Assembly: GCA_036405895.1 (NCBI GenBank) | Contig: DASWWS010000002.1 | Coordinates: 124,029-188,028 of the forward strand | DNA: 64,000 nucleotides | Source of the DNA: Minisyncoccota bacterium | GTDB taxonomy: Bacteria; Patescibacteriota; Minisyncoccia; Phycocordibacterales; UBA9973 | Direction of reading: 5' to 3' | In this document: one piece after another, positions 3,336 through 12,841 of the stretch | Layout: every line of letters begins with the position of its first letter | How positions within the stretch are numbered: the stretch's first letter is position 1 | Notes under the pieces: model-generated | Seen by the model: only the letters and a program-made list of their open reading frames with translations | Database searches by the model: none | Told to the model about the DNA's origin: nothing | Made by a program: the position numbers and the translations under genes

Positions 3336-3365
3336 ATTGTATCATGGGAAAGCTGCGGAGGTGGG

Positions 3366-3500
3366 TTTATAGTCGCTCTCGCTAAAAACAGAGTGGGTCG
3401 CTTGCGGAGGCATTATATAGTCGCTGACGCTCCTTATAATGCACTGCGCAAAATATGGTCGCACCTACGGTGCTTCCTATTTTGCGGAGGATGTGAGACG
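3366..3500. repeat. 135-bp intergenic repeat, copy 2, upstream of the NTase gene. It ends in a 15-nt copy of the 3' end of the adjacent tRNA (3484-3498).
   Basis: Aligned to 1813-1950. The distal core gcggaggatgtgaga is identical to the reverse complement of the tRNA 3' end at 3694-3708. Confidence 0.8.
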
Positions 3501-3693
3501 CTGAGCTATTCGCCCGCGAGTCTTTGTTTGATCAGTCACCAAACAAAGCTCTGGGCACCGGCTCAGTAGATTCTTCTGCTGAAGAATCATACTTCCGCCG
3601 TTCTCATCTCAACGTAAACCAAAGCAGTTTGGTTTACTCATCCTCCGCGAATAAAAATGGCCCAGATTTCTCTGGGACGCATTTTTATACTCG
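3501..3693. ncRNA. Structured ~190-nt tRNA-associated module A. It consists of a closing stem, three internal hairpins and a bidirectional terminator hairpin.
   Basis: Homologous to 4399-4579. Its hairpins covary with the second copy: GATTCTTC-TGCT-GAAGAATC vs GATTTCTT-TGCTA-AGAAATC, and GTAAACCAAA-GCAG-TTTGGTTTAC vs GCAATGCA-GTT-TGCATTGC. The terminator inner stem reads CCCAGA..TCTGGG here and CCGACC..GGTCGG in the other copy. The two ends are complementary: GCGGAGGATG..CATCCTCCGC. Confidence 0.5.
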
Positions 3694-3779
3694 CGGAGGA
3701 TGTGAGATTCGAACTCACGGGCCTTTAAGGGGCCGACGGTTTAGTAAACCGTTGATTTAAACCACTCATCCAATCCTCC
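3694..3779 (-). tRNA. Type-II (long variable arm) tRNA, Ser-like. The apparent anticodon is ACU, which is unusual.
   Basis: Hand-folded: acceptor GGAGGAT/ATCCTCC, T-arm GTGAG-TTCGAAT-CTCAC, variable arm GGCC-CCTTAAA-GGCC, anticodon stem ACGGT/ACCGT with loop TTACTAA. Discriminator G. No encoded CCA. Confidence 0.65.
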
Positions 3780-3833
3780 AGGACACCAATAAGTGTTTTG
3801 ATATCCTACCATACTCGCCTAAATAGAAAAGAA

Positions 3834-3868
3834 AACAGCCTAACGAGGACCGTCCTCGTTAGGCTGTT
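3834..3868. terminator. GGACNGTCC-core palindromic hairpin (AACAGCCTAACGAGGACCGTCCTCGTTAGGCTGTT) followed by TTTTT
   Basis: Perfect inverted repeat with a T-run. Member of a dispersed family listed in findings. Confidence 0.75.
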
Positions 3869-3880
3869 TTTAAGTACGTA

Positions 3881-4312
3881 TTAGTACTGAGGCTGAGGCT
3901 CGTGCTTCATCAAGCGCATCAGGTGCGAAAGCGAGTATCGGCCGGGACCCTGCACCAAAAGCGGGATGAGGGCTGCAATGAATACGAGGTTCACTTCCCA
4001 TCCGCCGAGGAATTCCATGTTCATCAAATTCTTTACAACAAATGCAGCAACAATCATGACAATAATAAGGAGGAATGAAACAATCTCGGTTCCAATACCC
4101 ACAATGAGCGCCAGACCGCCGATTGTTTCAACAAGCGTCACAATCCATGCCATGAGTCCCGCAAGCGGGAATCCCCATGCAACGAAGCCTTCCGTTACCG
4201 CCTCAATCCCCATGTTGAACTTCTGCAAGCCATGAAGGAAGAAAGCAATACCGACAATAATGCGGACAATCAACAGCGCTGTATTTATTTTGCCTTTGAA
4301 TATATTTCTCAT
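3881..4312 (-). CDS. DoxX-family integral membrane protein
   Basis: 143 aa with four predicted TM helices. LHGLQKF...GG motif typical of DoxX. Confidence 0.6.
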   Translation of the reverse strand: MRNIFKGKINTALLIVRIIVGIAFFLHGLQKFNMGIEAVTEGFVAWGFPLAGLMAWIVTLVETIGGLALIVGIGTEIVSFLLIIVMIVAAFVVKNLMNMEFLGGWEVNLVFIAALIPLLVQGPGRYSLSHLMRLMKHEPQPQY

Positions 4313-4376: not shown

Positions 4377-4398
4377 TATTTTTGCGGAGACGGCGAGA

Positions 4399-4579
4399 AT
4401 TTCTCCCTCGCCTCTCGTTGTGTCAGACACACTTCCTCGGGCTGGTCACCAGCTCAGTAGATTTCTTTGCTAAGAAATCATACTTCCGCTGTTCGAATCT
4501 CACCCGCAATGCAGTTTGCATTGCTCGTCTCCGCGAATAAAAATGGCCCGACATTAGGTCGGACTCATTTTTATACTCG
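4399..4579. ncRNA. Structured tRNA-associated module B, homologous to 3501-3693. It is bounded by a 15-nt copy of the tRNA-Ser 3' end at 4384-4398.
   Basis: See module A. Closing stem GCGGAGACG...CGTCTCCGC. Minus-strand T-arm-like GCGAG-GGAGAAATT-CTCGC. Terminator hairpin at 4531-4582. Confidence 0.5.
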
Positions 4580-4664
4580 CGGAGACGGCGAGATTCGAAC
4601 TCGCGAGGCTGTGACACCTGCCTCCTTAGCAAGGAGGTACAATCGACCACTCTGACACGTCTCC
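4580..4664 (-). tRNA. tRNA-Ser(GCU)
   Basis: Hand-folded: acceptor GGAGACG/CGTCTCC, anticodon stem CCTCC/GGAGG with loop TTGCTAA (anticodon GCT), long variable arm, T-arm GCGAG-TTCGAAT-CTCGC. Confidence 0.85.
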
Positions 4665-9576: not shown

Positions 9577-9650
9577 CCGCTCTTAGCTCAGTTGGTTAGA
9601 GCGCCGAGCTTATACCTCGGTGGTCCATGGTTCGAATCCATGAGGGCGGA
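9577..9650 (+). tRNA. tRNA-Ile(UAU)
   Basis: Hand-folded: acceptor CCGCTCT/AGGGCGG (one G-U pair), D-arm GCTC-AGTTGGTTA-GAGC, anticodon stem CCGAG/CTCGG with loop CTTATAC, T-arm CATGG-TTCGAAT-CCATG. Confidence 0.8.
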
Positions 9651-9744
9651 CATTAAGTAAACAAATATGCAGTATGCCTCTGAGGCAATGGCGTGTAGCG
9701 TTTCGACCCCAGGGAGAGGCGGACAAGTGCTATACTGTACACAT

Positions 9745-12188: not shown

Positions 12189-12455
12189 AGGCTTTATTAT
12201 ACATAAAAACGATAAAAACGCCTTTTAGGGGGTATCGACCTCCAGGTTACTAAATATTTTTCAGGGTATCGCCTCACAAATCACTAAGCATAATTCTTCG
12301 CTCCACTCGAATTCTGCCAAGTGTTCGCGAGCCCGGCTCGGTTCCGCCATAGGCGGATACCTGCGCCTTTTCGATACCCACGCAAGACAAGCAGTTGCCC
12401 TGTTCCATCTCCACCTAAAAAACAAAAAACGCCCAAGGGCGCTAATGTTGTTACA
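12189..12455 (-). promoter_or_regulatory. Structured region between ssrA and ftsH with TATAAT 7 nt upstream of the ftsH ATG, repeated CGATACCC motifs, and the ssrA intrinsic terminator (12423-12446)
   Basis: Minus strand reads ...GCGCCCTTGGGCGC-TTTTTTGTTTTTT, a terminator. Three CGATACCC motifs follow. GTATAATAAAGCCT then ATG. Confidence 0.5.
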
Positions 12456-12841
12456 GGTGGAGATGGGGGTATCGAAACCCCGTGCAAATGATCACGAACA
12501 AGTACTTCTCCATGCGTAGTACGATTTAATTGTTAAGACAGAATCTCAAAACCGTACAAAACGATTCATGTCCGAGCCTCGATTGTTTCGGAGTACTGAC
12601 GAGACACGCAGTACTTCCTACGTTCGATGAATGTTGCCGCGACTACGTTATCGAACATCACGTAGAGCGACACCGGATTGACCTAAATTTAGGCGAATGC
12701 CGGAGCGAAGTTTCCAAAATATGGAGACTTCACTGATGCTGTGCTGTTGCCAGGTAAGCGTTCGGACGAATTTTACGAGATACGTCCATTCTCGGCATGC
12801 ATACAGGCCCGATACATCAAATGTCGAAACCTTTCATCCCC
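12456..12841 (-). ncRNA. ssrA: tmRNA (ssrA)
   Basis: Minus strand 5' end GGGGAUGAAAGGUUUCGAC matches the tmRNA 5' consensus. The GCAUGCCGAG...CUCGUAAAA PK1 region is almost identical to E. coli tmRNA. A tag reading frame ends ...GNFAPAFA-UAA (stop at 12689-12691). The 3' T-arm-like GGGGT-TTCGATA-CCCC is followed by acceptor strand CATCTCC-A-CC, which pairs with the 5' GGGGATG using one G-U. It is adjacent to smpB. Confidence 0.8.

Follow-up and report, generated by a model that had tools for sequence, protein, structure and literature searches.

A conserved serine tRNA with anticodon ACU in Paceibacteria, probably a reader of AGU

What can a bacterium do with a serine transfer RNA (tRNA) whose anticodon is ACU? 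The question is raised by a 64,000-nucleotide stretch of a Minisyncoccota genome (contig DASWWS010000002.1; the whole of this stretch is referred to below as the window), which encodes a type-II tRNA-Ser with A34, C35 and U36 in the neighbourhood of a conventional tRNA-Ser(GCU). An earlier reading made from the DNA letters alone (the sequence-only reading) had pointed out that A34 is very unusual in bacteria outside tRNA-Arg(ACG), and that observation stands. In split codon boxes, Ile excepted, anticodons with A as their first nucleotide have been described as universally missing (Ehrlich et al., PMC8007984), for which misreading is the usual explanation (PMC8007984; preprint 10.64898/2026.05.15.725136). 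The sequence-only reading proposed that the tRNA is edited from A to inosine, or that it is a suppressor or recoding tRNA, or that it is a pseudogene kept in a repeat. None of these three is the best-supported explanation. The gene is real and conserved under structural selection, and the best reading is that it probably encodes a functional serine isoacceptor in which A34 is unmodified and forms a Watson-Crick pair when AGU is read.

The two tRNA-Ser genes on which the argument turns are these:

3694..3779, minus strand: tRNA-Ser gene, anticodon ACU (A34 C35 U36), type II (ARAGORN; Rfam RF00005; orthologues with compensatory covariation)
4580..4664, minus strand: tRNA-Ser(GCU), the conventional reader of AGY, on a different tRNA body (ARAGORN, 4579-4664; Rfam, 50.2 bits)

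The first is called by ARAGORN as tRNA-Ser(act), 3693-3779, and lies on the minus strand, which the sequence-only reading does not say, and the Rfam tRNA family RF00005 (gathering score 29 bits) matches 3779-3694 over its full length with 55.0 bits (E = 4e-9), more than the 50.2 bits of the neighbouring GCU gene. The fold had been described as canonical, with a 7-bp acceptor stem, a long variable arm and a TTCGAAT T loop, and each of these features is present. The acceptor stem (GGAGGAU/AUCCUCC) starts with the pairs G1-C72, G2-C71 and A3-U70, the D stem has 3 bp, the anticodon stem 5 bp (ACGGU/ACCGU) and the T stem, closing on the loop UUCGAAU, also 5 bp; the long variable arm forms a 4-bp stem of its own, GGCC/GGCC (alignment columns 46-49 with 58-61), the discriminator is G73, and CCA is not encoded. 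The anticodon loop, as placed by the Rfam alignment, is the seven-nucleotide UUACUAA. Its anticodon is accordingly the ACU that had been proposed, and ARAGORN and Rfam also agree on the normal GCU of the neighbour. Cloverleaf, long variable arm, G73 and the GGA acceptor start together are those of a type-II tRNA-Ser.

Eighty loci for comparison (designated, like the other loci and contigs cited here, by L numbers) were gathered by way of RecG from one-genome-per-species contigs, a sampling that is independent of the tRNA. The RecG relatives all come from metagenome-assembled Patescibacteria, the closest of them labelled Paceibacterota or 'Nomurabacteria'. In 13 further species (L004, L005, L007, L008, L013, L016, L019, L020, L024, L027, L028, L029 and L033), whose RecG proteins are 49-72% identical to that of the window, ARAGORN finds tRNA-Ser(act) upstream of recG. 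These carriers belong to one subtree of a RecG neighbour-joining tree, and for many of the subtree members in which no ACU gene was detected the upstream sequence examined was shorter than 3 kb; more distant Parcubacteria have Ser(gct), Ser(tga) and Arg(gcg) at the same position and no ACU gene. The gene thus appears to be fixed in one subtree of Paceibacteria, within the ultra-small Patescibacteria or candidate phyla radiation (CPR).

Across the 14 aligned ACU genes the loop UUACUAA, G73 and G1-G2-A3 are invariant. With the cloverleaf pairing specified by hand (24 pairs in 14 sequences), all 332 of 332 helix cells form standard pairs, and 12 of the 24 pairs have changes on both sides; all helices are affected, and the stem of the variable arm has compensatory changes in two of its four pairs. 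The covariation score is 0.334, as against 0.097 for shuffled alignments (0/500 reach the observed value) and at most 0.049 with the pairing partners slid. Conservation and covariation together exclude a pseudogene, an assembly error and a recent neutral mutation.

A search pattern made from the DNA of the D arm and the anticodon arm of the bacterial sequence, with position 34 left as N, extends the family well beyond recG. It has at least 120 matches in metagenome contigs (103 with A34 and 17 with G34 among the matches listed) and 35 in viral contigs (24 with A34, 11 with G34). Genomes, metagenomes and viral contigs taken together yield at least 137 copies of the ACU gene, with at least 102 distinct sequences as called by ARAGORN and at least 92 after trimming to G73. 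Outside tRNA arrays, at least 62 ACU loci have a GCU gene nearby, within less than 300 nt in at least 44 of them, and at least 37 of these 44 pairs are divergently oriented. A further 46 non-array loci among the matches listed have no GCU gene in the stretch available, which in 21 of the 46 includes less than 500 nt of flank. In the context of a bacterial GCU/ACU pair no G34 copy of the ACU body is found among the matches listed; in bacterial surroundings position 34 is always A. The best identity of the ACU body to any GCU tRNA of the sampled bacterial genomes is only about 0.70 (median), which makes the ACU gene a separate, long-established body. Its origin as a recent duplicate of the neighbouring GCU gene was considered and rejected, the two bodies differing throughout.

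The viral matches make up a second population of related ACU genes. These lie on viral contigs, the largest of 238 kb, in dense tRNA arrays that comprise as many as 27 tRNA genes (L201-L235; examples are L204, L224, L208 and L217). The usual neighbours there are Arg(acg), Arg(tct) and Ser(tga), and a GCU gene is present in none of the 29 phage or array ACU loci (0/29, in the stretch examined, among the matches listed). The copy in the window resembles these in carrying a related ACU tRNA-Ser. It is unlike them in being chromosomal, paired with a GCU gene and outside any array: ARAGORN finds three tRNA genes in the 64 kb, Ser(act), Ser(gct) and Ile(tat), and the surrounding genes are cellular. 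One cultured phage also has such a gene. Ralstonia phage RP13 (LC554890.1, 138609-138698, corresponding to L237 1495-1584) encodes a tRNA-Ser(ACU), with the loop CUACUAA and outside an array, which its database record annotates merely as tRNA-Ser. No other cultured phage with ACU on this body was found in a check that took one record per phage group and left out Erwinia phage matches; the matches in Synechococcus, Xanthomonas, Pseudomonas and Serratia phages are GCU or UGA. A search for hosts of the array phages, comparing a viral-contig protein with a phage collection, gave no match. Some phage-like arrays also hold tRNAs with anticodon CUA, to which ARAGORN gives the label Pyl (L129 2828, L206 2647 and L228 974); these may be amber suppressors.

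Which amino acid the codons of the AGN box specify in the carriers can be read from conserved protein positions. Ten groups of orthologues common to the window and the loci were used, with columns in which at least 70% of the non-carriers have one residue. The carriers' AGA falls in conserved Arg columns in 79 of 83 cases and their AGG in 15 of 17; for conserved Ser columns the counts are 58 of 75 with AGU and 48 of 79 with AGC, and UCN codons reach 79-84%. The AGN box is therefore standard in these bacteria, AGA and AGG specifying Arg, and AGU and AGC specifying Ser. AGU, the codon complementary to ACU, means Ser, as befits a type-II tRNA-Ser; it is neither a stop nor a reassigned codon, and the box is split between Ser and Arg instead of being a four-codon family box. 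With a standard code the ACU tRNA is neither a recoding tRNA nor a suppressor.

In the mechanism that we favour, seryl-tRNA synthetase (SerRS) would charge the ACU tRNA by way of the identity elements already referred to, the long variable arm, the GGA acceptor start and G73. Bacterial SerRS does not read the anticodon. A34 would most likely stay unmodified and form a Watson-Crick pair with the U of AGU; the separate tRNA-Ser(GCU) would read AGC, and also AGU by wobble, leaving AGA and AGG to tRNA-Arg. For the ACU tRNA of these bacteria we infer that it is expressed, that it is serylated, that its A34 is left unmodified and that it is restricted to AGU. Where the state of A34 is concerned, the unmodified nucleoside is distinctly favoured over inosine. 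The substrate loop of TadA has U33-A34-C35-G36, and the ACU tRNA has U36 in place of G36. An orthogonal tRNA with the ACU anticodon is not deaminated in E. coli, whose TadA leaves this anticodon unedited, and the same tRNA gave 9.4% for AGU and 0.36% for AGG, with AGC and AGA below detection (PMC11066159). AGA is often used for Arg (up to 17 per 1000 codons in ACU-carrying bacteria and 23.6 in the phages), and a tRNA with ICU would misread it, which also points to an unmodified A34. Directly upstream of recG, most sampled Parcubacteria have tRNA-Arg(gcg) instead of acg (ARAGORN; L036-L080, for example L052 9888-9961), in agreement with a published note that the CPR lacks tRNA-Arg(ACG).

Codon usage fits an AGU reader. 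The phage contigs with ACU genes have 26-40% G+C and use, per 1000 codons, AGU 20.8 times, AGC 4.3 times and AGA 23.6 times; in the ACU clade and its near relatives AGU stands at 9-23 per 1000, where the majority of the sampled distant Parcubacteria have 3-9. Several points weigh against the unmodified AGU reader, nonetheless, and the first concerns these very counts, which come from crude calling of open reading frames and are phylogenetically non-independent, the AGU shift being one at the level of the clade. The genome of the window, moreover, prefers AGC (15.3 per 1000 codons) over AGU (8.8), its AGA and AGG standing at 3.3 and 1.7, and demand for AGU alone does not explain why the gene is retained there. 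These bacteria have a family of TadA-like deaminases whose substrate could be the ACU tRNA. The absence of canonical TadA and of tRNA-Arg(ACG) from the ACU clade is one that we infer from relatives and from the literature. Finally, unmodified A34 can superwobble elsewhere, and its fidelity in a split box is hence not guaranteed.

The deaminases bring up the alternative that survives best, namely that a TadA-like enzyme converts ACU to ICU, which would read AGU and AGC, with partial reading of AGA; the split box would then have an inosine tRNA. This is A-to-I editing much as the sequence-only reading had envisaged it; it is possible, and we consider it unlikely. The gene that brings it into play lies on another locus:

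L164, 5929-6498, minus strand: TadA/guanine-deaminase-like gene, 156-189 aa (motif scan, NCBIfam, solved-structure search)

It immediately adjoins a tRNA-Ser(gct) and is about 300 nt away from a tRNA-Ser(act). Its best NCBIfam match is TadA (E = 2e-20), but the 73 bits of that match are far under the NCBIfam TadA cut-off of 150. Among proteins of solved structure S. aureus TadA comes out best at 66 bits, but with B. subtilis guanine deaminase nearly equal at 63, and the family lacks the loop motif of the TadA proteins aligned with it (DPKGGCSGS in S. aureus), having HEPxMDP at that place. Close homologues (45-63% identical, about 155 aa) are common on CPR-like contigs, and one of these, L241, also has tRNA-Arg(gcg), so that the classical substrate of TadA is absent there. 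The neighbourhood of deaminase and tRNA is not conserved, however: no tRNA-Ser(ACU) lies near five other members of the family (ten places), and a conserved deaminase-tRNA neighbourhood (0/5) was accordingly dropped as a candidate. A motif scan finds no deaminase motif in the window or in the 80 recG loci. A wider scan of 2.28 Mb yields the one TadA-like gene of L164 and three phage genes with HAETNAL...PC..C, which, by their motif alone, are read as being of the dCMP-deaminase type; no canonical TadA is seen in the 2.28 Mb, only the divergent TadA/guanine-deaminase-like family.

Codon usage and the partner tRNA speak to inosine as well. AGA and AGG are used somewhat less in the ACU clade than in distant Parcubacteria of equal G+C, as would suit a tRNA that endangers them. 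Against this, AGA is common at conserved Arg sites in the carriers, and the GCU tRNA is kept although ICU would make it redundant. With the classical TadA substrate absent too, editing is disfavoured. In its most specific form the proposal would be that the divergent TadA-like deaminase converts tRNA-Ser(ACU) to ICU in bacteria without tRNA-Arg(ACG), misreading of AGA being limited by competition and reduced AGA use. We regard that form as doubtful, somewhat more so than editing in general. If true, it would mean that a split two-codon box has an inosine-34 tRNA, the first such case, and that a bacterial A34 deaminase acts mainly on a tRNA that is neither a tRNA-Arg nor a family-box tRNA, likewise for the first time.

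A different suggestion takes its cue from the phages. A34 might be kept mainly as an escape from a nuclease or toxin that hits the anticodon loop of tRNA-Ser(GCU), with transfer between phages and bacteria, and with decoding of AGU being secondary. The bacterial ACU genes have 0.75-0.84 identity to phage tRNAs and only 0.65-0.70 to co-resident bacterial GCU tRNAs, so that the closest relatives of the ACU body are in phage arrays, although this similarity is partly an artefact of a search pattern derived from the bacterial sequence, which biases the comparison. The lack of a GCU gene in the stretch examined of all 29 phage or array loci among the matches listed, and the ACU tRNA-Ser of phage RP13, would both suit such an escape. 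So would genes of tRNA-repair type near the arrays, which are phosphoesterases in the scanned contigs L201 and L217 and a phage-type RNA ligase in L201; a nuclease and auxiliary genes of the ferredoxin type are also among the genes near the arrays of these two contigs. This analysis identified no anticodon nuclease specific for tRNA-Ser(GCU), however; the synteny and deep conservation of the bacterial genes agree with vertical inheritance that followed one ancient transfer at the most; and the phages use AGU so heavily that a dedicated reader of this codon needs no further explanation. Nuclease escape as the main reason for A34 is, in our judgement, quite improbable.

The immediate setting of the ACU gene in the window bears on its expression, which is part of the unmodified-AGU-reader account. 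It comprises the first four of the following features, the fifth being the remaining tRNA gene of the window:

3881-4312, minus strand: DoxX gene, upstream of the ACU tRNA (Pfam)
3832..3870, minus strand: strong terminator hairpin closing DoxX, with an 18-bp stem (terminator scan; inverted repeat I3)
3803..3811, minus strand: promoter-like extended -10 motif, TGgTAGGAT, 24 nt upstream of the 5' end of the tRNA (sequence reading)
3661..3676, both strands: bidirectional terminator hairpin, CCCAGA/TCTGGG with a T run on each strand, directly 3' of the tRNA (terminator scan)
9577-9651, plus strand: tRNA-Ile(tat) (ARAGORN)

The ACU and GCU genes are thus on the same strand with DoxX in between, and the terminator of DoxX, lying upstream, makes the ACU tRNA a transcription unit of its own. 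A motif resembling TGnTAnnAT, read by eye, precedes most of the 14 orthologous ACU genes by 12-25 nt; a generic sigma-70 scan did not report the -10-like motif at 3803..3811. The flanking terminators and the conserved -10-like motif suggest that expression of the gene is plausible. The context is cellular: the window encodes RecG, FtsH, the DoxX protein and a transfer-messenger RNA (tmRNA). The tmRNA is full-length at 12455-12841 on the minus strand (Rfam, 108.7 bits), where ARAGORN is silent; the same program did call tmRNAs in several of the related loci.

The 'repeat' in which the sequence-only reading had placed a pseudogene turns out to be a separate structured element of about 150-165 nt that is inserted downstream of each of the two tRNA-Ser genes:

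3484..3648, strand not assigned: structured element copy 1, about 165 nt, downstream of the ACU tRNA, closed by GCGGAGGAUG/CAUCCUCCGC (repeats D2-D4, I13)
4384..4534, strand not assigned: element copy 2, downstream of the GCU tRNA; its closing stem, GCGGAGACG/CGUCUCCGC, matches the GCU acceptor stem (repeats D1-D4, I7)

The two copies are about 78-79% identical. In each the closing stem is the acceptor stem of its own tRNA plus 2 bp, and the end duplicates the last 12-15 nt of that tRNA; the minus-strand end of copy 1 is a duplicate of the last 15 nt of the ACU tRNA, UCUCACAUCCUCCGC. The folding z of copy 1 is -8.8 on the minus and -8.0 on the plus strand. A scan of the locus against Rfam at permissive thresholds finds no family for the element, the two tRNAs being its only matches. 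In relatives without the element the junction CCUCCGC-AAA is the one that, in the window, follows the duplicated tRNA 3' end of copy 1 (the second copy of the tRNA end), which points to an insertion that would have duplicated the tRNA 3' end or brought it along. Related copies occur at L120, L165, L168, L108, L170 and L029. More generally, the genome and metagenome loci include 32 tRNA genes, Ser(act) or Ser(gct) in most cases and Ile(tat) in some, that have a duplication of their 3' end 50-310 nt downstream, as against only four with one upstream and none among 226 viral tRNA genes. The element may be a miniature mobile element that targets tRNA genes, or else a small RNA gene. A tandem duplication of a unit of about 890 bp was rejected as the source of the arrangement, since the likeness between the two places covers the element (about 150-165 nt), the terminator and the tRNA's 3' part and goes no further. 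A different repeat of about 130 nt, with 83% identity, is present at 3354-3480, just beyond the element, and at 1801-1928, an intergenic site 1.5 kb off; it holds several CUCCGCA motifs that resemble the 3' end of tRNA-Ser.

Two remaining explanations can be dismissed briefly. That the gene is a non-functional copy, whether as a pseudogene or as a tRNA-Ser(GCU) with a neutral G34A mutation, caught in a local repeat, might be suggested by the repeats around both tRNA-Ser genes and the copies of tRNA 3' ends downstream, but it is hardly credible for a gene that outscores its GCU neighbour, has no broken base pair and 12 compensatory pairs of 24 across 14 species, is represented by at least 102 distinct sequences that all have A34, is at most about 0.70 identical to GCU bodies and so is no recent duplicate, and stands intact beside a repeat that is a downstream insertion; low score, broken helices and want of conservation, the marks of a tRNA pseudogene, are none of them seen. 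That the tRNA puts serine where AGA or AGG stands, or changes what AGU means, has in its favour that A34 or I34 could in principle reach AGA and AGG and that these codons are read as Ser in animal mitochondria (cited in PMC8629427), and yet it has next to no chance of being right when the carriers' AGA and AGG align with conserved Arg, and their AGU, like AGC and the UCN codons, with conserved Ser; the text of the Codetta screen paper contains neither 'Patescibacteria' nor 'ACU', and the CPR reassignments in the passages drawn on here are those of Gracilibacteria and Absconditabacteria only (PMC8629427).

How does an unmodified reader of AGU compare with tRNAs already known? With the bacterial tRNA-Ser(GCU) it shares the type-II fold, the long variable arm, G73, the GGA start, C35-U36-A37, the codon box and the amino acid; it differs in its A34, its separately conserved body, and an expected restriction to AGU in place of AGC and AGU. 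With tRNA-Arg(ACG) and TadA the likeness is confined to the anticodon loop, in which A34 is followed by C35 and which departs from UACG at position 36 only; the ACU tRNA has U36 there, not G36, and its host group uses tRNA-Arg(GCG). Closest in kind are the gene-encoded A34 tRNAs other than tRNA-Arg that occur naturally in Mycoplasma, tRNA-Thr(AGU), and in Lactobacillales, tRNA-Leu(AAG) as well as tRNA-Thr(AGU) (PMC11066159; preprint 10.64898/2026.05.15.725136), which are retained by their lineages in AT-rich genomes with many codons ending in U. The ACU tRNA belongs with these as a natural non-Arg A34 tRNA that a lineage has retained. Theirs are four-codon boxes, however, in which misreading is harmless, and as a rule they take the place of the GNN tRNA, with deamination frequent among them; the box of the ACU tRNA is split and shared with Arg, and the tRNA coexists with its GNN partner.

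The same anticodon has been put into E. coli tRNAs by engineering (Schmitt et al. 2024; Raval et al. 2026 preprint). One such ACU tRNA is unmodified and discriminates AGU from AGC by at least 95:5 (PMC11066159), and an overexpressed Ser-tRNA(ACU) is tolerated by E. coli or beneficial to it (Raval et al. 2026 preprint). These are laboratory constructs; the ACU gene described here is natural, and selection has maintained it in bacteria and in phages. In their survey of 4047 bacterial genomes Raval et al. note that A34 tRNAs of two-codon boxes are sporadic in GtRNAdb, always with a G34 partner and never fixed in a genus (preprint 10.64898/2026.05.15.725136). A 2026 study of the tRNA genes of 95 complete Patescibacteria genomes makes no mention of tRNA-Ser(ACU), and in the literature on ACU serine tRNAs in bacteria, Patescibacteria and phages we found no description of such a family. 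The lineage-wide conservation of a split-box A34 tRNA appears to be new.

The tRNA-Ile(UAU) listed above has its own place in this region. It is found beside recG throughout the clade (9577-9651 in the window, and in most of L003-L040), and tRNA-Ile(UAU) is listed among those generally missing in prokaryotes (PMC8007984). Its presence points to a decoding of AUA that would do without lysidine and TilS.

For annotation, the ACU gene means that pipelines which distrust such anticodons could wrongly drop a real gene. For engineering of the genetic code it offers a naturally evolved AGU-specific decoder with which the AGY pair could be split. It also provides a natural test system for why A34 is avoided and for whether decoding in a split box can be faithful with an unmodified A34. 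The decoding apparatus of Patescibacteria is unusual, having Arg(GCG) in place of ACG, Ile(UAU) and now Ser(ACU).

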